IMG/VR virus record: IMGVR_UViG_3300027898_000001
DNA: 64,000 bases
Direction: 5' to 3' (one strand)
Source: a virus
Lineage: Duplodnaviria > Caudoviricetes
In this document: piece by piece, positions 8,601 through 51,585 of the stretch
How positions within the stretch are numbered: the stretch's first letter is position 1
Layout: the number at the start of each line of letters is the position of its first letter
Notes under the pieces: model-generated
Database searches by the model: none
Told to the model about the DNA's origin: nothing
What the model saw: only the letters and a program-made list of their open reading frames with translations
Made by a program: the position numbers and the translations under genes

Positions 8601-9002
8601 GAGAACTGTATTGGGTTTGTACGAAGTGATAATACTCTCAAGACGTTTCTTGAAAGCATCTTTAGCAGATTGTTTGAATATGTCTGTCTCACCAGCAGTT
8701 TTAAATCCATTGAATGCTACAGCTAACCAATCGAAATCATCAAGAGTACGAGAGTATCCATAGTACTTATTGGTAACAGCTAATAACTTTTTCAGTAGAT
8801 CACCAGTAACACCAGACAATACGCGACTGGATTTTAAATCTTCCGTTGGCATGTAATCCAATACTAACAACAACTTATCAGCACCCTTCTTTACATGCTT
8901 AGCTAACTGTACATGATTATAGGTTTGCGTACCTTTAAATGCAGTGCCAAAATTGTATTCGTATGTGTCGTAAATAACTTTAGCCATAATATAATTATCC
9001 AC
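5610..9002 (-). CDS. polA: Family A DNA polymerase with N-terminal UDG-like domain, 3'-5' exonuclease and mini-intein
   Basis: ExoI SIDTETE, ExoII ANGTFD, ExoIII YCSLD; motif A DYSAHEVR, motif B RDAVKAVIFGLIY, motif C VHDSI; TGRTSAQKPSLHQIP. Confidence 0.95.
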   Translation of the reverse strand: MDNYIMAKVIYDTYEYNFGTAFKGTQTYNHVQLAKHVKKGADKLLLVLDYMPTEDLKSSRVLSGVTGDLLKKLLAVTNKYYGYSRTLDDFDWLAVAFNGFKTAGETDIFKQSAKDAFKKRLESIITSYKPNTVLTFGPDGYRALNGARIEQYGGKMQHLYGVSTPIIVKRGDKSHKCNHVPTLSLNTLINDQGLGNEMALAGYVARNIGTALNGEMRYKIPKLEYTTVLVDSIKKFKKMIEAIIDEPRLSIDTETENLNRRVNRMLTVQFATTTKTAYVLPFLHKDSPFTSEELQYIKKVLRDYFERKNKNDVHIFANGTFDLTVLRNNLDIRFFKTDIWDIFAGEFALDENLKNLSGVTGAYYYSLLNLSMQYGCTAYYDAEFGKDKRKTIAQVDLDEALLEYCSLDVIIPLHIMRLQLQRAKDEGYKKYKDIVRKQISDMIHMFSTWEFNGCPTDIEYLFYLQTRDSPIRQEMDNIKKKFYETKGVQKANAKLLKKSGMPTIGLFGRSDVKVFDIAKQDHQQLLFFDVLKLKPTGKGKENSKGKAKFKVDKTFQKKYEDVEEVKLFQALGKAKKLYTSYVKAFIKQWGSDDDMRFDKRIRPHFGFLDVVTGRTSAQKPSLHQIPSRPELGKHIKRLFITEKGRILIKVDYSAHEVRCLSLDSYVSTEIGMVKLRDIIEMHDKPLVHSFNHETCEVELKEIGTQSVHPPEEDMYEIGYYGGTITVTGNHQIWSVTRNDYIRADEIVEGDALRVQYSAVKVTSIRKVPRPELVCDIGIADNHNLFVCDKPEDTPVLVHNCWSLFTGDKTVADLFANGRALREQYKLHPDPELLKRVKLEGDVHKINAAYFFGIPIEKVDKKIRDAVKAVIFGLIYQQGMNGLSKSTGQTVEAIEKLVAQFKKKHPVGVKWFDAIKQFARDNLYVESPIGRRRHTWGHLIPKNATKNADSVIARNERQSVNSPIQGIGSDFLINGARSVERLKFEHFEKTGHYPDFYQANSVHDSISFSCAYEDVWLALDMIERGLTDEVAKVSQERHGMDFIVPLEIDFEIGNNERDCEGWTFSIEQLGDILKSCLKEQQKLYPDMDAKAVYNNIMREQYEYMPSWAKTQAWNCKLKMSGMDKSVKKKAA
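6606..7028 (-). mobile_element. Mini-intein (141 aa, no homing endonuclease) inserted just after PolA motif A
   Basis: Starts CLSLDS, block B TVTGNH, ends VLVHN followed by +1 Cys; removal restores DYSAHEVR-CWSLF. Confidence 0.93.
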
Positions 9003-43272: not shown

Positions 43273-43281
43273 CTGTAAATA
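43273..43281 (+). promoter_or_regulatory. CTGTAAATA motif (rightward) of a divergent pair
   Basis: 20 nt upstream of the primase ATG 43302. Confidence 0.65.
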
Positions 43282-43301
43282 TGAGTTACGAGGTACTTAA
43301 T

Positions 43302-44336
43302 ATGTCAGAAGATGCGCGTCAAATAATAAGTGAGGAATTGAATAATTCTCCTGGTCCTAAAAAGATGGCAGGTAGTTCACTTCTCATACAATGTCCTTTC
43401 CATGATGAAAACACACCATCATGTGGTGTCAACTTAAATCAAGATAGTGGTATTCCACTTGGCTGGTTTCATTGCTTTGGTTGTGGTGCTAAAGGTCCGT
43501 GGAATCGCTTAGCAAAACAAATGGGATTGACCCAGTTTAAGAAGTGGCAATTAGATTTCAAAGGTAATGGTGCGACTAGAGAAGAAAAACGTAGAACACC
43601 AGAAGCTAGTATGAAAAGTACAAATCAACTTGAGCGTATGTATAAGACGTTGAAAACAAAGGAGTTGATTGAATGGCCTACTAGAATGGACTGGAGAGGT
43701 TATGATGGCACACTACTTAGAAAGCTAGGCGCATTAATGTTTAGTGAAGAAGTGTGGAATAAACAAGAACGTGCTAGAGAAGCAGAGGTAATGCTGTTCT
43801 TCCCAATTTATGTAAACGAAAAGTTTGTAGGTGGTGTTAAAGCATTCATGGAGAAACAAAAAGACGGTCTAAGTTACTTGAACACGCCAGGCAGTTGGGT
43901 AAGAACAAGTGGTTTACTGGGATATGATTATATTCGCAAAGTAATAGCTAATGTAAGAGAAAAGAAAAAGAGACAATACACATCATTAGTATTAGTTGAA
44001 GGCCCGCGTGACGTAGCACGACTTCTGTTAAACAGAGTGCCAGCAATGGCTATTTTGGGTATCGAGAACTTTAGTGAAAAGAAGTTAATGAAAATACTGG
44101 CGGTAAATAGCAATATAAAAAGATTGTATGTAATGTCGGATAATGACAAAGCTGGTAAGCGTATGTATAAGATTATCAAGGAGATGGCTGCGAATTACAT
44201 CCCTGTAAAACGATTGAAATTGCCTGAAGAGTATGACAAGAAAGGAAAGCTAATTAAAATGGATCCAGACGATGCACCGCAAGAACTAATTGATACTGTA
44301 AGAGAACTTATAGAGTCGGAGATGGTGAAAGTCTAG
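43302..44336 (+). CDS. dnaG: DnaG-type DNA primase (likely start 43302)
   Basis: CPFHDENTPS..HCFGC zinc finger; TOPRIM LVEGPRD, DNDKAG; SD GAGG. Confidence 0.92.
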   Translation: MSEDARQIISEELNNSPGPKKMAGSSLLIQCPFHDENTPSCGVNLNQDSGIPLGWFHCFGCGAKGPWNRLAKQMGLTQFKKWQLDFKGNGATREEKRRTPEASMKSTNQLERMYKTLKTKELIEWPTRMDWRGYDGTLLRKLGALMFSEEVWNKQERAREAEVMLFFPIYVNEKFVGGVKAFMEKQKDGLSYLNTPGSWVRTSGLLGYDYIRKVIANVREKKKRQYTSLVLVEGPRDVARLLLNRVPAMAILGIENFSEKKLMKILAVNSNIKRLYVMSDNDKAGKRMYKIIKEMAANYIPVKRLKLPEEYDKKGKLIKMDPDDAPQELIDTVRELIESEMVKV

Positions 44337-46736: not shown

Positions 46737-47306
46737 TTTAGCGGACTTGTCCAAGTGACGTAGGAACGATATTATCCTTGCTTCACCTTCTAGGTTTGCG
46801 AATGGTATAAGATCAAATTGTTTAGCTACATGGTACTGCGCCATTAGCGTACAATCTAGTTCATGTACTTGGTGACGTATTTTAGGAGATTTTGGTTTCG
46901 ACAATACTTTTAGCATATCGTAAGTATCATTTAAAGAACAATCCTTATTAACGCGGTTAAAAGCATTCTTCCAAGTACCTGCAGTGTAAAGTACTATATT
47001 AGGATAAATATCATGTAACTTACCAATCATCATATTGATTGATTCTATGGAAAGTCCCTTTAATCCCCTACTTTGAAAACGCTCCGCGCACACTAAATCA
47101 AACGGTCCATATAAATGCTCAAGATGGTATATGTTTGATACAAACGCTCTACCCTCAGTCTTGATAGACATAGGGTTCTTAATAGGGCGCTCAAGCATTT
47201 GCGTACCAAGAACTTTTACTTTTAATTCACCGTCTTTAACTATCATATCAGATATTGAAACACCGTAATTAGCAGTACCTGGATCCATTGATAATATGCG
47301 CATCAC
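46731..47306 (-). CDS. ruvC: RuvC-like Holliday junction resolvase
   Basis: ILSMDPGTANYG, CAERF, HELDC acidic RNase H-fold pattern. Confidence 0.82.
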   Translation of the reverse strand: MMRILSMDPGTANYGVSISDMIVKDGELKVKVLGTQMLERPIKNPMSIKTEGRAFVSNIYHLEHLYGPFDLVCAERFQSRGLKGLSIESINMMIGKLHDIYPNIVLYTAGTWKNAFNRVNKDCSLNDTYDMLKVLSKPKSPKIRHQVHELDCTLMAQYHVAKQFDLIPFANLEGEARIISFLRHLDKSAKL

Positions 47307-47392
47307 ATCTACCTTATAAGAGTTTCGAGAAAATTAGCATATCGTGGTTCGATAATTTTAATTATATTTCCAATGCTAAAGGTAGAAGTAGA

Positions 47393-48499
47393 ATGGCTAT
47401 ATATAGAGGACCACAAGATACAAACAGACGCGCCAAGAACTACACACACAAACAAGCTCAAGCACGTTTGGAAGAGACTATACCTACATTTAACGAGCAA
47501 GTAATCAACTCACTTGGTGTGGATAGTGTTTTCATAGATTACTTCCATGTACATGATAGAGTAGGTGAAGTGTGCAGTTGTAGAAAAACAAAGGTAGAGG
47601 ACACATTCGATCACGTGGAAGATGGTGTGAATACAGTAGTACCTACACGTAATGATGTTAAGTCGTCCATAATACTGCAAGATGATGATATATTCGGAGA
47701 TAGTCGGGCAGAACGTATCTACGAAGATCAGGGGATAGATGTAAGTGGAGACTTAGATTATGATCCTAGTATTCCAGACGTGTTGACTGCACAACTAGAT
47801 AAAGATGGTAATGTTGTATATCAAGATAGTGTGACAGAAGGTAATGTAGATTGTCCTATATGTTATCGCACAGGCATACTACCCGGCTACACAAGATTGA
47901 ATACAGTGCGCCATTTGTTGACAAGTTTGAACTATGTTAAACTTGATGGTTACAATATAGATAGGGCATTGACACCACACGAGTTGTGGAACGTAAGTAA
48001 AACAGGTAATGCGTATTATGAGATATTAGTGCCAAAATACTTCACAGTAGCTAATTACAGTGTTCGTTATGGTAAGTACATTCTAAAGGCCGAAAGTATC
48101 TATCTGAACGGTGTGCCTCTGTCAGATAAGTTATTACGCAGATACGCAGGCACAAAGATAATAGTGTCTACAAAGGCCGAAAAATTTACACACATTGTTA
48201 TAGAGTTTGAATTAGTGCAAGAAAAACTACGTGGTAACCTGAGCGCTGAATCGAAAGCCTTAGATTACAATTTACGTGATATGACAGCGGATTTCACAGT
48301 AATCTTACCACCAAGTTTACATGAAGTAAGAGTGAATGATGTTATTGTAATACGGGATAGAAGGTTAGTATTAAAGGTGAAAGACATGGAACGTAAAGTG
48401 ACGGCAGCAAAAAAGCAATTAGAATGGTCAGTTCAAACGAGGGTGGTTCAACCACAGGAACCAATCAAAAACATTTACAAATCATTTAAAATAGGTTAA
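47393..48499 (+). CDS. Hypothetical protein, possible head-closure/neck protein (start ATG 47393)
   Basis: CSC..CPICYRTG zinc motif and beta-rich C-terminus; structural role inferred. Confidence 0.45.
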   Translation: MAIYRGPQDTNRRAKNYTHKQAQARLEETIPTFNEQVINSLGVDSVFIDYFHVHDRVGEVCSCRKTKVEDTFDHVEDGVNTVVPTRNDVKSSIILQDDDIFGDSRAERIYEDQGIDVSGDLDYDPSIPDVLTAQLDKDGNVVYQDSVTEGNVDCPICYRTGILPGYTRLNTVRHLLTSLNYVKLDGYNIDRALTPHELWNVSKTGNAYYEILVPKYFTVANYSVRYGKYILKAESIYLNGVPLSDKLLRRYAGTKIIVSTKAEKFTHIVIEFELVQEKLRGNLSAESKALDYNLRDMTADFTVILPPSLHEVRVNDVIVIRDRRLVLKVKDMERKVTAAKKQLEWSVQTRVVQPQEPIKNIYKSFKIG

Positions 48500-48503
48500 T
48501 ACT

Positions 48504-49085
48504 ATGAAAGACAGTACGGAAATAGCAGTACAAAAGAACATGATGGCTCTTGCAAAGAAGCGCGGCAGTAGTGCTCGTAGTCGTATGCTTAGTATGATTA
48601 TGCCCCACCTGTCCCAAGAAAATGGTGAGAAATTAGCCTCAGCATTAGATTCCAAGAATTCTTCTAAGTTTAGAGAAGTTTGGGATAAGATTCGTAAGGA
48701 AATTGAAACTAAATTTGGGCACAAAGCCGAAGCTAGTAATAGCAATGACTTCTTGGAAGAGTTTGAATTGGAAGTATTAGCTTCCTATAACGATTCTGAT
48801 GATGGTATCTTGTTGAATGGTAGTGGTCCATTCAAAGATCAACTACGTAGCATAATTGCAAATGGTTATGCTGAAATATCTCCAGGTATTGTATATCGTT
48901 TAGTATCAATTGATTTAGGTGCAGCACATAACCGCGCATTACAATCAAACATTGCAAAGATAGATGCAGAATTACACAGAGTGGATGGTACGTTAATTAA
49001 GTCATTCCGTTTCAGCGGCAAGTTAGTAAGTGCAGTATTCGACAACTTATTACTGGCAAAGGCGTTTATCAAAGATGATAAGTAA
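48504..49085 (+). CDS. Hypothetical protein
   Basis: 193-aa ORF in operon. Confidence 0.6.
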   Translation: MKDSTEIAVQKNMMALAKKRGSSARSRMLSMIMPHLSQENGEKLASALDSKNSSKFREVWDKIRKEIETKFGHKAEASNSNDFLEEFELEVLASYNDSDDGILLNGSGPFKDQLRSIIANGYAEISPGIVYRLVSIDLGAAHNRALQSNIAKIDAELHRVDGTLIKSFRFSGKLVSAVFDNLLLAKAFIKDDK

Positions 49086-49284
49086 ATGCACGAATACAAC
49101 ATGCCCTATGCGCAGCGAGTGCAGACGTTCTACAGATATGTGGAGAGAAGATGATCCTAAGTCTTGGTACACGTATACTGTAGGAATAAATGGTGCGGAA
49201 TGTTCAAACAAGATAGATAACTATAGACGGTTATCTATCTCAAACCGCACTACTCCTATTCGTAATTCTGTGGTTGTATTTTAA
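49075..49284 (+). CDS. Small Cys-rich protein (start ATG 49075)
   Basis: CTNTTCPMRSECRR..AEC four-Cys pattern. Confidence 0.5.
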   Translation: MISKCTNTTCPMRSECRRSTDMWREDDPKSWYTYTVGINGAECSNKIDNYRRLSISNRTTPIRNSVVVF

Positions 49285-49501
49285 GTATGTTGTAATCTAT
49301 ATGCGCGAGTACGACGGCTTCTAAGTTTTGTCTATCTAAACTACCGTCGTACCTGCATATCTTAACTCCTGCATTAGGTAATGTATCTACACACACAAAT
49401 AGATAACATTTACCATTCACATTTTCCCATCCAATAGGTAATTCATCTATAGCAATATAATGAGAAATACCGTCAACTTCTACTACACTAAACCATTCCA
49501 T
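49256..49501 (-). CDS. Hypothetical protein
   Basis: 81-aa ORF, SD AGGAG; first gene left of the non-coding region. Confidence 0.55.
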   Translation of the reverse strand: MEWFSVVEVDGISHYIAIDELPIGWENVNGKCYLFVCVDTLPNAGVKICRYDGSLDRQNLEAVVLAHIDYNILKIQPQNYE

Positions 49502-49939
49502 ACTTTTCTCCTAAAACACGTTTTTGGCAGATTATCAATTATTTACAATTTCTGTTTTTGCAAAAAGGACGAAAATCGTTCATTTTCATGCGAAAAAGTC
49601 ACTCAATTTCTTCAAAAACACGCTCTTATAACTAAAAGTTATTAAAACGCGGTTCCAAGAAAATGCTATTCCACATGCTAGGAATGAAGCCTACGGTATG
49701 CCTAATGTACGTTCCACCCAAACCAGTGTTTTTACAGGTGATACCTTTTCATGTTTTCGTCAAAAATTAATAGCTGTTTTTATTGCAAAAATAATATGAA
49801 TTCCATCCTAATGCATGGTCCTATCAAGGTAGTACTATTAAAACACTATATAACCACGCTTTTTCAAGATTAGACAGGTAGCAATTCGTATATAACCAAA
49901 TAGTCTAAAAATTCAGAAATAAAAAGTGTCAATACATAG

Positions 49940-50640
49940 TATTGCGCGAGAGCGAATAGCCTCGAAACGAATTCCCCAGCCAGAATGAGTGATAGAGATT
50001 GACCGAATGAGAACGAAGCGAAAGTGAGGGTATTTATACCCGAACAGAATTAGGCGCATTTGCGAAAAACTTGAATAGACTAGCCAGATTAATAAGCCTA
50101 ATCGGACGAGCGGAGTGAAGTCCTAATAGCGAAGCGTCCTGTCCGATGCTGCGGAGCAGCGAGTACACCTTAGCGCAGCGAAAGGTGATTAAAGATACTC
50201 TAAAAGATATTTCCCTGGCTCCAAGAATACATCATCCTAATTGGTAGATGATGTTGATTAGGTCTTTGGTAAATTGGGCAAAGCCTGCTTTTCGGAAAGC
50301 CATTGTTCCCGTTTCTAATTAGCCTATCTTTATAACGATTTAATTAGGATTAATTCTTTGCCTTTTTGCCTTTAAAGTTAGGATTAATTCTTGTATGAGT
50401 TAATCGCCTACGGCTCATAACTCCACTCTGCTGCGCAGAGGTCTTTATCGTTACTTCGTAACTCTTATTCTTCGCTCCGCTCATCATCCGCTACACTACG
50501 TTCCGCTCCTATTTTTAACTAATCTGTTTTAATTCCTTTTTCTATGCGCTAACGCGCTTGATAATATTTTACGCCGCGCCGGTTCGAGGCTGCTTTCGTG
50601 CGCGTTTCGCGCTTTTCTGAGTAATTTTATATACTTTTTC
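49940..50640. other. Candidate replication origin / strand-switch control region
   Basis: Non-coding; purine-rich left arm and pyrimidine-rich right arm; GNA-loop mini-hairpins on opposite strands; coding strand flips here. Confidence 0.6.
50344..50392 (+). repeat. 15-bp direct repeat TTAGGATTAATTCTT x2
   Basis: Copies at 50344-50358 and 50378-50392. Confidence 0.85.
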
Positions 50641-50659
50641 ACATAAACGAGTAAATGCT

Positions 50660-50965
50660 ATGATACCTATTACAATAGTTCTAGCTAGTGACAGATATAA
50701 TAGTTACGATGAATATACTGCTAATCAAACTGAACCTTCTGACGAAGAATTGGAAGAGCAACGTATAGAAGATGAACGTCAGGTTGCAGAAGATGCCAAG
50801 AAAGCTGATGAGGCTAAGAAAAAGCCAGCTGCTAAAGATGATACCGCTTCCGAAGATAGTAGTGAAGAAGGAGATGATTCTGACGAGGAATCCGACGATA
50901 CTGACGAAGACGAGGAATCTACTGATGATACCGATGATGAGGACGATACCAAGGCTGACAAATAG
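50660..50965 (+). CDS. Highly acidic low-complexity protein
   Basis: 101 aa; C-terminal half almost all D/E/S/T. Confidence 0.7.
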   Translation: MIPITIVLASDRYNSYDEYTANQTEPSDEELEEQRIEDERQVAEDAKKADEAKKKPAAKDDTASEDSSEEGDDSDEESDDTDEDEESTDDTDDEDDTKADK

Positions 50966-51206
50966 TGCAGCAGAATTGGGCCGTATTAAAACGCACAGAG
51001 ACAAGCATATTAAAGCTCTATCTTATTATGATAGACGCAAAAACCTTTGTCGTTTAGATAACATTACACAGTTGGCATACATACGAGAATTAATGTTATT
51101 GCGTCTACGTATGGAACGTCCAGAACCTGTTAAAGACTACGATAGATTGTTGATGCGCTCTGCATTACAACACTTCAGATTTGGCCTACACCACCTTTGC
51201 AACTGA
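50925..51206 (+). CDS. Hypothetical basic protein (start uncertain)
   Basis: GAGGA 8 nt before ATG 50925; overlaps the acidic ORF. Confidence 0.4.
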   Translation: MIPMMRTIPRLTNSAAELGRIKTHRDKHIKALSYYDRRKNLCRLDNITQLAYIRELMLLRLRMERPEPVKDYDRLLMRSALQHFRFGLHHLCN

Positions 51207-51216
51207 GACATTTAAA

Positions 51217-51585
51217 ATGACCGAAATTCTTATTTCCACCAGTGCGTCCTCACCAAACAATGATTTAGACAGAGCCATTTATGAAGCTCTCAATACTTCA
51301 TTTGATCTTAAGGTAAACAAGAACGATCTGTACCGTTCCGTATTTAACGTAGTTAACGCTCCTGATGCTATTTTCAGATACAAAACTCTTTCCAAAGATC
51401 CGAGATACACTACACTGTGTCGCGCATTTGAAGACAGTATTTCCGAGCGGTATGATGAATTAATTGAGAAATATGATTCCGCAACCGATAGTGAATTATT
51501 GGATAAACTGCAGGATGCCTTGTCTAAAGATTTTGGTATCCAAGCACATATTAATCTAGGCCGTTTAATCGTATCTTTAGCATAG
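51217..51585 (+). CDS. Hypothetical protein (start ATG 51217)
   Basis: MTEILISTSA N-terminus. Confidence 0.6.
   Translation: MTEILISTSASSPNNDLDRAIYEALNTSFDLKVNKNDLYRSVFNVVNAPDAIFRYKTLSKDPRYTTLCRAFEDSISERYDELIEKYDSATDSELLDKLQDALSKDFGIQAHINLGRLIVSLA

Follow-up and report, generated by a model that had tools for sequence, protein, structure and literature searches.

The 64,000-nucleotide stretch of DNA analysed here (the window) comes from the dsDNA genome of an uncultured freshwater jumbo phage of ~260 kb, the record of which spans 146.8 kb and is ~56% complete. At 49940-50640, we found a degenerate dyad of ~700 bp with its centre near 50285, whose two arms carry DNA mini-hairpins with GNA triloops on opposite strands. 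A 1.16-kb non-coding region (49502-50659), present once per genome, has this stretch as its core. Our preferred, still tentative, reading is that the element acts in cis, in a single copy, by means of hairpins that form when its DNA is single-stranded or extruded, most likely as a bidirectional origin of replication; the start of DNA copying is favoured because related phages keep the same design. By analogy, and with equal reserve, we suggest that such an origin would carry single-strand hairpin signals of the ssi/G4 type, with ssiA/ssiB of the IncQ oriV as the closest analogue.

In the region 49502-50659, no ORF with a start codon reaches 50 aa, and stop-to-stop frames do not exceed 69 aa. 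Small proteins encoded by the arms were considered and rejected, as the purine-rich strands have no open frame that gives similar peptides. A DNA search of the phage's own record with the region returned the region itself as the sole match. It is flanked by a minus-strand ORF (49256-49501) and a plus-strand ORF that starts at 50660. A preliminary description of this DNA had placed the element at a strand-switch point, with mostly minus-strand genes to the left and only plus-strand genes to the right. This holds in outline, except that three plus-strand ORFs lie at the left (47288-49284), and the large switch in gene orientation is found at ~47.3 kb. The element is less than 3 kb from this switch and within a module of replication and recombination genes, as it is in the phages PaBG, Lu11 and HRDY3. 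Based on PHROG matches, the module contains a DnaG-type primase gene (43281..44336, plus strand), the product of which might read the hairpins, alongside genes for helicases, a PolA-type polymerase, a clamp, a clamp loader and a RuvC-like resolvase. No initiator gene was identified. The conserved neighbour gene at 47288-48499 was considered for this role, which is unsupported because the gene has no Pfam family and its product gave no significant fold match (nothing at E ≤ 0.001, with weak matches to carbohydrate-binding beta-sandwich modules); the structural model of the product was of low quality overall (mean pLDDT 59.6), with the C-terminal half alone modelled well. Homologue searches with the small flanking ORFs at 49256-49501 and 51181-51585 came back empty.

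All eight hairpins of the preliminary description were found at the coordinates given there, and they form part of a longer series of features. At its left edge, on the plus strand, a GTGTCAATA box is followed by the hairpin CAATAC-ATA-GTATTG (49926..49944); by position this is the counterpart of the AAAACTGTAAA promoter of the HRDY3/Lu11 clade. The outer dyad blocks GCGCGAGAGCG and AGCCTCGAAACG (49944..49969, plus strand) mirror the blocks CGGTTCGAGGCT and GCGCG-TTT-CGCGC (50580..50612, minus strand), with which they form inverted pairs, as also seen in the global dyad alignment. Further inward, an unpaired run of AGCG pentamers (GACGAGCGGAGTGAAG), a CCTAAT box and the mini-hairpin GC-GAA-GC, the last inside AGCGAAGCG (50129-35), occupy 50105..50135 on the plus strand, and the inverted-pair member in this stretch is 88% complementary to 50470-85. 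Next comes a left module of two plus-strand hairpins, namely hairpin A, GCTGC-GGA-GCAGC (50148..50160), and hairpin B, CACCTT-AGCGCAGCGA-AAGGTG (50166..50187), which nests GC-GCA-GC (50173-79) and has the loop format seen in Lu11 (AGGGG-AGCGAAGCGA-CCCCT). The middle of the element has features to which no strand is assigned: the palindrome ACATCATC-(CTAATTGGTA)-GATGATGT (50229..50254), which contains a CCTAAT box; the dyad centre, made up of the conserved block GGGCAAAGCCTGCTT and the hairpin GCTTT-TCGG-AAAGC (50277..50300); and an AT-rich patch (50300..50400) with two direct copies of TTAGGATTAATTCTT (50344-58 and 50378-92). On the right, all on the minus strand, are the hairpin GCC-GTA-GGC (50406..50414), whose CCTACGG core is common to PaBG and the HRDY3 clade, a right module with hairpin B, CTCTGC-GCA-GCAGAG or alternatively CTCT-GCGCAGC-AGAG (50426..50440), and hairpin A, GTTAC-GAA-GTAAC (50450..50462), and an unpaired AGCG-pentamer run, GATGAGCGGAGCGAAG (50470..50505), that includes GC-GGA-GC (50474-80). 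Two weak 2-bp GNA hairpins lie at 50495-501 (AC-GTA-GT) and 50499-505 on the same strand. In addition, eight CCTAAT boxes, candidate protein-binding repeats, are spread over 49701..50348, five in the plus orientation (49701, 49807, 50097, 50122 and 50236) and three in the minus orientation (50049, 50257 and 50343).

Motif counts far above chance confirmed that the hairpins are non-random. The record holds 23 GNA hairpins with a stem of at least 5 bp on its two strands together, of which 3 fall within 315 bp here; shuffled versions of the region had a mean of 0.09 (P 0.0005). GCGNAGC was found 45 times in the record and 5 times in 50100-50500, where 0.12 copies were expected (Poisson 2e-7, ~8e-5 after window correction), and three of the four copies of AGCGNAGCG in the record are located here. 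For CCTAAT, 8 of the 68 copies in the record lie here against 0.31 expected (Poisson 1.5e-9). Bare 2-bp GNA stems such as AC-GTA-GT occur at ~4.4 per kb per strand in the record, and on their own they are therefore at chance level. The original observation separates into two layers: what look like 2-bp 'GC-GNA-GC' hairpins are no more than AGCG-N pentamers in tandem, whereas the selected structures are the surrounding longer, covarying stems. The mirror-image composition of the arms was borne out as well, with a purine fraction of 0.56-0.68 in 49950-50200 versus 0.26-0.42 in 50300-50650, and the strand polarity of the hairpins flips at the dyad centre near 50285. The dyad symmetry of the arms is weak but significant in global alignment (z 4.9-5.3 versus 1.8-2.1 for the direct-orientation control); when aligned locally, the left arm and the reverse complement of the right arm gave no significant match. 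In the AT-rich patch the lowest 80-bp GC content is 0.26, which belongs to the bottom 1% of windows in the record. The folding energies of the arms as ssDNA were unexceptional (z -0.15 to -2.2) under a nearest-neighbour energy model that may omit the special stability of GNA loops.

What is conserved among relatives is a twin-hairpin module with variable stems, in which hairpin A has a stem of 5-7 bp and a C-GNA-G triloop, and hairpin B a stem of 4-8 bp around an AGCG-N(1-2)-AGCGA loop. The gap from A to B is 0-9 nt when the two are adjacent (14 nt in the right arm of relative L013), additional unpaired AGCG pentamers lie near the modules, and in each arm the module belongs to the strand whose 5'-to-3' direction points to the centre. 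Between the modules, ~240 bp contain the conserved centre block and CCTAAT boxes, and no other patch of the region is as rich in AT as the one found there. In a genome-wide scan of three genomes (147-314 kb), the strict A-then-B module was confined to the syntenic non-coding region, with two copies in this phage (50148-50187 plus and 50426-50462 minus), two in PaBG (117081-117120 plus and 117363-117402 minus) and one in a complete 314-kb relative. A looser definition by the B-type hairpin was discarded as too permissive in GC-rich genomes (78 and 50 matches), the A-then-B combination alone being specific.

Syntenic non-coding regions were found in PaBG, Lu11, HRDY3 and metagenomic relatives, and in jumbo phages of the PaBG, Lu11 and HRDY3 types the region carries the same motifs at the same gene position. 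Profile searches returned only distant relatives, at 27-42% protein identity. The DNA of the region had no nucleotide match among 50,697 phage records, single-protein searches of viral and metagenome contigs found no closer relatives, and contigs from sequencing runs were either identical to the window or from unrelated organisms, and yielded neither variants nor a depth profile nor ends. In four genomes (this phage, PaBG, L013 and L022) the GNA and AGCG motifs are in sense on opposite strands of the two arms; their inverted modules are spaced by 238, 242, 246 and 263 bp, and the centre pattern [AC]AAG[CT]CTG[CT]TT occurs once per non-coding region, midway between the modules. L017, L020 and Lu11, all of the HRDY3/Lu11 clade, have plus-strand motifs only, and the region of this clade shows no dyad symmetry (z below 0).

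The loops are constant and the stems differ, whether one compares genomes or the arms of a single genome. An identical 12-nt loop, GAGCGCCAGCGA, is carried in PaBG by the stems GCGCA/TGCGC and AGGAGT/ACTCCT, and hairpin B variants of the HRDY3 clade include GGTGGC-GTA-GCCACC, GGGAACC-GAA-GGTTCCC, GGTGGT-GAA-ACCACC and TGTTCC-GAA-GGAACA. Compensatory changes were seen in 24 of the 75 predicted pairs of the HRDY3-clade alignment, and L013 has CCTTCGG in place of CCTACGG, so that the loop on the minus strand stays GNA. Retention of the hairpins but not of their spacers, which had been put forward as a check on the functional proposal, is what we observed, in that the GNA and AGCG-N-AGCGA loops are conserved and the stems covary while the spacers drift. 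A covariance model of the HRDY3-clade module gave a weak match to the right arm in this phage (50387-50475 minus, 12.6 bits, E 0.41), which is suggestive of homology but does not prove it. CCTAAT-like boxes also form clusters on the left side of the region in Lu11 and HRDY3.

We then have to ask which molecule forms these hairpins. The main rival to an origin, conceivable although we consider it doubtful, makes them RNA structure: a large non-coding RNA with extensive structure, or else a long leader that is itself structured, would start from the TGT(A/C)AA box at the left edge, and this phage and the PaBG clade would have another such unit on the opposite strand. A AAAACTGTAAA box, annotated in Lu11 as a middle/late promoter, is invariant in nine sequences of the HRDY3/Lu11 clade; it comes after an upstream terminator, and the ~450 nt into which it reads are conserved, free of ORFs and contain at least seven covarying hairpins, some of them without GNA loops. 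This counts against an origin, since the promoter reads into the module, most hairpins there are in transcript sense, and RNA fits equally well. Six genomes have a single TGT(A/C)AA box in their non-coding region, at a distance of 310-367 nt to the left of the centre block, and in this phage it is the GTGTCAATA box at 49926, one base off the TGTAAATA promoter box that is found upstream of at least 19 ORFs in the record. At this position the HRDY3/Lu11 clade has an invariant CTGTAAA, whereas this phage and the PaBG clade have nothing but TGTCAA variants. The TGTCAA variant deviates from an otherwise strict 8-mer and was rejected as a general promoter, as it is not recurrent upstream of this phage's genes. 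The sole TGTAAA-type boxes at the left edge, which are on the minus strand at 49540-47 (a TGTAAATA box beside the ORF at 49256-49501) and at 49731, point away from the core.

Folded as RNA, the whole 725 nt did better than shuffled sequences (z -3.1 for the plus strand and -2.3 for the minus strand; 20 shuffles), and tRNA genes are located 1.6-2.6 kb downstream of the region, a setting in which large RNAs of phages, such as ROOL and GOLLD, often occur. Searches of Rfam 15, which includes ROOL and GOLLD, nevertheless gave no match at E ≤ 1 in the region of this phage, PaBG, Lu11 or HRDY3, and the loops are DNA-stable C-GNA-G triloops rather than the GNRA/UNCG tetraloops typical of RNAs. Consensus folding was near-equal on both strands (-54.9 versus -49.6 kcal/mol) and was therefore rejected as a means of choosing between them. 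Importantly, since the arms are on opposite strands, a single transcript would be unable to carry both in sense. The right-arm modules keep their GNA and AGCG-N-AGCGA motifs on the opposite strand in four genomes, and no canonical promoter reads them in sense. An RNA role would make the element a new member of the large structured RNAs of phages, unusual for a design made up of triloops throughout.

The short boxes could instead be read as duplex signals. They are strongly enriched in both orientations, the flanking ORFs are divergent, the repeated palindromes of the ACTACTGATTGCAGT type in PaBG-clade regions resemble operators, and the gene for the RuvC-like resolvase is 2.6 kb away. These observations would suit a double-stranded regulatory or processing site with secondary hairpins, either a divergent promoter/operator with CCTAAT and TTAGGATTAATTCTT as operators, or a recombination, partition or packaging site that a phage protein would recognise, possibly in cruciform shape. 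We regard such a site as unlikely. A scan detected no sigma-70-like promoter in the core (49800-50630), and the whole region has 7 matches where 6.5 are expected; moreover, the covarying stems imply selected pairing within a strand, for which a site acting only as duplex has no need. One relative has direct terminal repeats, and there the region is ~26 kb from the ends and hence is not the packaging end.

Promoter hairpins of the phage N4 type had also been proposed in the preliminary description, and this proposal was not borne out. It holds that a phage single-subunit RNA polymerase reads the hairpins on the template strand for divergent transcription, which we consider highly improbable. 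The stems of 5-6 bp with GGA/GAA triloops do resemble N4 early-promoter hairpins (5-7 bp stem, GGA/GAA triloop, GCGGAGC core, template strand), the GCGGAGC core included (PMC13037366). GCTGC-GGA-GCAGC and GTTAC-GAA-GTAAC each have such a stem and loop on the template strand, and the hairpins are on the template strand for outward transcription to the flanking ORFs. Yet N4 has a promoter set ahead of early genes, unlike the lone, internal element here, for which no cognate polymerase was found. N4-type promoters are unsupported because no virion RNA polymerase was found: the T7/N4-like domain (PF00940) was not detected in the record (~56% of this phage's genome), PaBG, Lu11 or the complete 314-kb relative, in a search of unproven sensitivity whose controls gave no match. 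There is likewise no ORF of N4 size (maximum 1969 aa for PaBG and 2055 aa for the 314-kb relative), and the scanned large ORFs of the record match helicase, polymerase, tail-protein, recombinase or unknown-function families. The group is described as relying on host RNA polymerase with phage sigma factors, and sigma factors are all that the PaBG paper describes in this respect (PMC7412058).

For the bidirectional origin that we prefer, the arrangement of the strands is consistent with outward synthesis, as the preliminary description had supposed. In both arms the template for such synthesis is the sense strand, and both modules have their 3' sides turned to the centre, so that two forks would leave in opposite directions. 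The AT-rich centre, in the lowest 1% of GC windows, and the enriched CCTAAT and TTAGGATTAATTCTT boxes also support this reading. In such a scheme, the centre would first be opened by a box-binding protein or by transcription from the TGT(A/C)AA box, where transcription through the purine-rich arm could give a stable hybrid of purine RNA and pyrimidine DNA. The freed purine-rich strand of each arm would subsequently fold into mini-hairpins, and these would mark the start of synthesis for the phage DnaG-type primase and helicase. GC skew was rejected as an origin test, since it follows the orientation of the genes, its sign is reversed in PaBG, and in the 314-kb relative the region does not coincide with a global extreme.

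We put forward, with slightly more caution than the origin itself, that PaBG-type ('Lupandier') jumbo phages have an undescribed kind of origin, in which twin-hairpin modules ~240 bp apart on opposite strands serve as priming and helicase-loading signals for a DnaG-type primase. In the literature we found no link to an origin for the PaBG/Lu11/HRDY3 group, and the PaBG genome paper makes no mention of an origin, the intergenic region or hairpins. Such hairpin signals for priming have been described in ssDNA phages and plasmids, and we know of none in large dsDNA phages. If the element is an origin, priming signals made of GNA mini-hairpins would also exist outside ssDNA phages and IncQ-type plasmids; the ssi/G4 principle would extend to jumbo phages, and the group would have its first testable origin. 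The group is widespread, comprising PaBG, Lu11, HRDY3 and many uncultured freshwater and soil relatives, and the element offers a precise, single-copy, conserved target of two 40-nt modules and a 15-nt centre block.

C-GNA-G and GNNA loops form extra-stable DNA mini-hairpins, which have been reported from the complementary-strand origin of G4, ssiA of RSF1010 and N4 promoters (PMC13037366). Those of G4 and ssiA are reported to bind SSB poorly and to be located at priming sites. In IncQ plasmids, ssiA and ssiB each occur once, as an inverted pair with one member on each complementary strand, and the primer begins 3' of the hairpin (PMC8567376). The phage element is alike in having hairpin signals capped by GNA mini-hairpins (CCGAAGG in ssiA; PMC13037366), where the A hairpins are of the C-GNA-G form, the B hairpins nest GC-GNA-GC, and the stems covary. 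It also resembles them in carrying one single-copy signal per strand as an inverted pair, an arrangement found in this phage and PaBG as well as in L013 and L022 but absent from part of the HRDY3/Lu11 clade. The geometry would likewise be similar, with the primer starting 3' of the hairpin and synthesis running through it in ssiA (PMC8567376), and both the IncQ oriV and the phage element have an AT-rich region with repeated boxes nearby. The IncQ signals, however, are a near-identical pair of 40 nt read by the Pri-type primase RepB', whereas the phage element has a twin hairpin with an additional AGCG-N-AGCGA loop, its copies share loops and not stems, and they lie ~240 bp apart around a conserved centre. 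Also in contrast to IncQ, the encoded primase is of the DnaG type, and we saw no sequence homology. The DnaG-dependent complementary-strand origins of G4, St-1 and alpha3 are comparable in their clusters of hairpins on one strand, with mini-hairpins of the GCGAAAGC or GCGTTAGC type, and G4-type mini-hairpins are thought to resist SSB and to guide DnaG primase (PMC13037366). These origins serve one strand of a naturally ssDNA genome, whereas the phage element has its signals on both strands of a ~260-kb dsDNA genome, in which an opening step is needed.

The T4 origins oriF and oriG, which consist of a promoter and a downstream unwinding element and are primed by an R-loop, have to our knowledge neither GNA hairpin modules nor a dyad arrangement. 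The phage element may resemble them in having a putative phage-type promoter box 130-260 nt upstream of the left module. This box is strictly conserved in the HRDY3/Lu11 clade, although in this phage it is a one-base variant (TGTCAATA) of the strict TGTAAATA. A transcript from it would be purine-rich, and the displaced structured strand could receive helicase and primase, as at oriF and oriG.

All hairpins that the preliminary description had listed for the element (49940-50640, inside the non-coding region 49502-50659) were present at the listed positions, and its division into a purine-rich left half and a pyrimidine-rich right half was confirmed. Because GNA "hairpins" with a 2-bp stem have a background of ~4.4 per kb per strand in the 146.8-kb record, the weakest items (AC-GTA-GT, CG-GAA-CG) are meaningless alone. 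GNA hairpins with a stem of at least 5 bp number 23 on both strands of the record, and 3 of these fall within 315 bp at the element, where shuffling gave a mean of 0.09 (P 0.0005). The heptamer GCGNAGC occurs 45 times in the record, with 5 copies in 50100-50500 against 0.12 expected (Poisson 2e-7), while the element holds three of the four record copies of AGCGNAGCG and, within 650 bp, 8 of the 68 copies of the word CCTAAT (1.5e-9). When the left arm was aligned locally with the reverse-complemented right arm, the result was not significant. Global alignment did reveal the dyad, with z values of 4.9-5.3; the direct-orientation control gave 1.8-2.1, and ten control centres gave -1.7 to 2.7. On this basis the element is a degenerate dyad that spans ~700 bp and has its centre near 50285. 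Between the arms of this phage lie an 8-bp-stem palindrome containing a CCTAAT box and two copies of TTAGGATTAATTCTT, the latter inside the 80-bp stretch of the region that is richest in AT (GC 0.26, in the lowest 1% of record windows). The ssDNA folding energies of the arms were ordinary; the whole 725 nt self-folded slightly better than shuffles on either strand, as is expected of a dyad. Contigs from public sequencing runs were either identical to the window or from unrelated organisms.

The proteins of the IMG/VR virus record that contains the window (estimated completeness ~56%) are closest to those of the Pseudomonas phages PaBG, Lu11 and HRDY3, with Erwinia and Dickeya jumbo phages more distant. 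In several relatives, metagenomic ones included, a long non-coding region lies 3' of the homologues of 47288-49085, measuring 1.5 kb in PaBG, ~0.63 kb in HRDY3 and ~0.75 kb in Lu11 (with two tiny ORFs annotated inside). BLAST of this phage's region against these regions found no alignable sequence. The relatives' regions nevertheless share with that of this phage tandem AGCG-N pentamers, C-GNA-G triloop hairpins and hairpins with AGCG-N(1-2)-AGCGA loops. The 2-bp GC-GNA-GC "mini-hairpins" of the preliminary description thus turn out to arise automatically wherever two AGCG-N pentamers adjoin; the selected structures are the longer stems. Conservation in related phages, proposed earlier as a check, was indeed found: the GNA and AGCG-N-AGCGA loops are kept and the stems covary.

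The unit that recurs across clades is a twin-hairpin module on one strand, in which hairpin A (a 5-7 bp stem with a GNA triloop) is followed by hairpin B, 0-9 nt away when adjacent and 14 nt away in the right arm of relative L013; in the left arm of relative L022 the order is reversed, B then A. This phage carries GCTGC-GGA-GCAGC, a 5-nt gap and CACCTT-AGCGCAGCGA-AAGGTG in the left arm (plus strand), and GTTAC-GAA-GTAAC, a 9-nt gap and CTCT-GCGCAGC-AGAG in the right arm (minus strand). The PaBG modules, each with a 1-nt gap, are TTTCGCC-GCA-GGCGAAA with GCGCA-GAGCGCCAGCGA-TGCGC (left, plus) and GTGAGC-GAA-GCTCAC with AGGAGT-GAGCGCCAGCGA-ACTCCT (right, minus), the two B copies sharing an identical 12-nt loop on unrelated stems. 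In the right arm of L022 (minus strand) GAGGGC-GAA-GCCCTC directly abuts GGTAT-GAGCGTAGCGA-ATACC (gap 0 nt), and in Lu11 (plus strand) TTCCGC-GAA-GCGGAA precedes AGGGG-AGCGAAGCGA-CCCCT by 1 nt. Under a strict definition, which required 5 bp or more in the A stem and, no further than 25 nt along the same strand, a second stem of 4 bp or more enclosing GCG-N(1-2)-AGC, the module occurs genome-wide only in the syntenic region: this phage and PaBG (258 kb) have two copies each, and a complete HRDY3-like genome of 314 kb has one. That the element has no function takes up only the small remainder of probability left by the readings discussed below.

Part of the phage group has kept the mirror arrangement. 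Four genomes (this phage, PaBG, L013 and L022) carry the motifs in purine-rich sense form on the plus strand for the left arm and on the minus strand for the right; their arms are spaced by 238, 242, 263 and 246 bp, respectively, and exactly one copy of the centre block [AC]AAG[CT]CTG[CT]TT stands at the arm midpoint of each (50280 in this phage). The right-arm triloop reads CCTACGG in this phage, PaBG and the HRDY3 clade and CCTTCGG in L013, so that its minus-strand loop stays G-N-A with N varying. Global dyad symmetry reached z values of 5.3 in this phage, 4.3 in L022, 2.1 in L013 and 1.7 in PaBG, and was absent in HRDY3, L023 and Lu11. A minus-strand pair is recognisable in HRDY3, L018 and L023 as GTTACC-GTA-GGTAAC plus a long hairpin with GCGAAGC or GCGCAGC in its minus-strand loop; L017, L020 and Lu11 have the motifs on the plus strand only. 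One TGT(A/C)AA box each was found in this phage, PaBG, L013 and L022, 310-367 nt left of the centre block, a distance equal to that of the HRDY3-clade promoter box. We judge it improbable that the element works as duplex DNA in regulation or processing, with CCTAAT and other short boxes as its operators.

Nine HRDY3/Lu11-clade sequences aligned across the whole region, in the order terminator of the upstream gene, invariant AAAACTGTAAA box, ~450 nt with several hairpins, C-rich tract and next gene. Of the 75 pairs that RNAalifold predicted here, 24 carry compensatory changes, and covariation was clearest in the hairpin after CTAACGC-G(T/G)A-GCGTTAG, which appears as GGTGGC-GTA-GCCACC, GGGAACC-GAA-GGTTCCC, GGTGGT-GAA-ACCACC or TGTTCC-GAA-GGAACA. 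A covariance model of the HRDY3-clade module matched Lu11 (E 0.05); its best match in the window was a weak one (E 0.41) to the right arm (50387-50475, minus strand), with AACGATA, GAC, a GC-GNA-GC hairpin, GGAG and a C-GTA-G hairpin in model order.

Several features were confined to parts of the group. At the right end of the HRDY3/Lu11-clade region, immediately ahead of the next gene, a tract containing four C runs of 4-5 nt each is conserved (L006:9640-9700, and L018, L021, L023, L020, L017 and L005; alignment A2, columns 800-850), and its minus strand is a canonical G-quadruplex motif; the tract is absent from this AT-richer phage. In the left half of the PaBG-clade region the palindrome ACTACTGATTGCAGT(AG) recurs two to three times, always after TTGAC or TTGCA (L002:11537-11690 in PaBG; L013:7150-7300); these copies resemble operator or promoter units, and this phage has none. 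The record of phage NCTB starts inside the non-coding region; at the syntenic position there (L007:9400-9560), a CTGTAAATA box is followed by a pyrimidine-rich stretch that holds TTCCCTTCCGGGATAT in three direct copies. The Erwinia jumbo-phage relatives, with a short syntenic region of ~400 bp, lack the twin-hairpin module; several of them (among L027, L029-L032, L034 and L039) keep one plus-strand GTAAG-GTA-CTTAC hairpin at ~8780-8850 of their loci, downstream of the 47288-48499 homologue.

The conserved loops are exactly of the C-GNA-G and GNNA types, which form extraordinarily stable DNA mini-hairpins and have been reported from the G4 complementary-strand origin, RSF1010 ssiA and N4 promoters (PMC13037366). 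A transcript from the left-edge promoter box, which is invariant in the HRDY3/Lu11 clade and is followed there by further non-GNA hairpins, would itself contain the purine-rich sense strand; the box, these hairpins and such a transcript would suit a structured RNA or leader, or at least transcription. We nevertheless consider that reading doubtful, and counted for DNA the loop types, the virtual absence of RNA-type tetraloops and the lack of a canonical promoter reading the right arm in sense; moreover, a single transcript cannot carry both arms in sense, because the sense motif lies on opposite strands. Consensus folding showed no strand preference (-54.9 vs -49.6 kcal/mol). Given the observed anatomy, uniqueness, conservation pattern and polarity, we tentatively favour a single-copy cis-acting DNA site operating via single-strand hairpins, most likely a bidirectional origin. 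In this reading the element would open, its hairpins would fold in vivo, and priming and the start of replication would take place there. The DNA and RNA views can be reconciled in a T4-like scheme: as a purine-rich arm is transcribed, the RNA would stay paired with the DNA in a stable hybrid, and hairpins formed by the displaced strand would hold the bubble open and take up primase and helicase.

The closest analogue is the ssiA/ssiB pair in oriV of the IncQ plasmid RSF1010, where each of the complementary strands carries one hairpin signal, the two being inverted relative to each other; a GNA mini-hairpin caps the signal, and the primer starts 3' of the hairpin (PMC8567376). The element has matching geometry, in that each module turns its 3' side towards the centre and synthesis on the sense strands would run outward, in agreement with the earlier suggestion that the hairpins sit on the template strand for outward synthesis. 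By sequence the element is not a family member, and the phage primase is DnaG-type, closer to G4-type signals. GNA mini-hairpin priming signals are already known; neither the PaBG genome paper nor the literature searched nor Rfam describes a jumbo dsDNA phage in which twin-hairpin modules with AGCG-N-AGCGA loops mirror each other across a conserved centre. The element offers a precise, testable origin candidate for the whole phage group.

As far as can be told, the element does not represent N4-type hairpin promoters, the other function first proposed, and we regard these as very improbable, since the cognate virion RNA polymerase was not found. A T7/N4-like polymerase domain was detected in none of the record, PaBG, Lu11 and the complete relative (the search controls gave no signal), no ORF is of N4 size or exceeds 2055 aa, and the scanned large ORFs of the record belong to helicase, polymerase, tail-protein and recombinase families or to families of unknown function. 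For PaBG only sigma factors were reported (PMC7412058). At least 19 ORFs of the record are preceded, at a distance of 16-62 nt, by a strict 8-mer, TGTAAATA, which in most cases has A at positions -2 and -4; examples lie at 43274, 54177 and 52244 (plus strand) and at 49547, 43241, 40846 and 9034 (minus strand). Its Lu11 counterpart is annotated as "middle/late promoter", and the 8-mer is this phage group's counterpart of the T4-style late promoter box. One such box directly precedes tRNA-Met (52284).

Three further identities were rejected. A coding region is contradicted by stop-to-stop frames of at most 69 aa, unrelated peptides from the purine-strand frames of the arms, and indels in relatives that are not multiples of three; a known RNA family, by the lack of an Rfam match at E <= 1 in this phage, PaBG, Lu11 and HRDY3; and a genome end, by the position of the region ~26 kb inside a relative with direct terminal repeats.

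GC skew, which had been put forward as a check for an origin, tracked gene orientation without a consistent origin signal. In this record cumulative skew was lowest over a broad stretch at 37-53 kb, and in PaBG, with opposite sign, it peaked at 115 kb, adjoining the region; the 314-kb relative showed no global extreme at the syntenic region. With a G-rich coding strand in this phage (38% GC) and a C-rich one in PaBG (56% GC), the curves are mirror images around a common gene-orientation switch, which calls for caution in skew-based origin finding in this group.

The described switch, from mostly minus-strand genes on the left to plus-strand genes on the right, was roughly right: genes are plus-strand from 50660 onward and, except for the primase, minus-strand up to ~47.3 kb. 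In the interval between, three plus-strand ORFs occupy 47288-49284, followed by a small minus-strand ORF (49256-49501) preceded by a TGTAAATA box. The window contains a replication and recombination module with helicases, a PolA-type polymerase, clamp, clamp loader, SbcC, Cas4-like nuclease, RuvC-like resolvase, topoisomerase II and the DnaG-type primase (43281-44336). The protein encoded at 47288-48499 (plus strand), of unassigned function and without a Pfam match, is a core protein conserved across the whole PaBG/Erwinia jumbo-phage group (alignments A1 and A5), with invariant CxC and CxxC cysteine pairs. Its structural model was of low confidence overall, with a poorly modelled N-terminal and a confidently modelled C-terminal half, and a fold search with it returned no significant match, only weak ones to carbohydrate-binding beta-sandwich modules. 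The first ORF right of the element (50660-50965, plus strand) encodes an extremely acidic, low-complexity protein of 101 aa with D/E/S-rich runs and without a family match, which might act as a mimic of DNA or as a histone-like binder.
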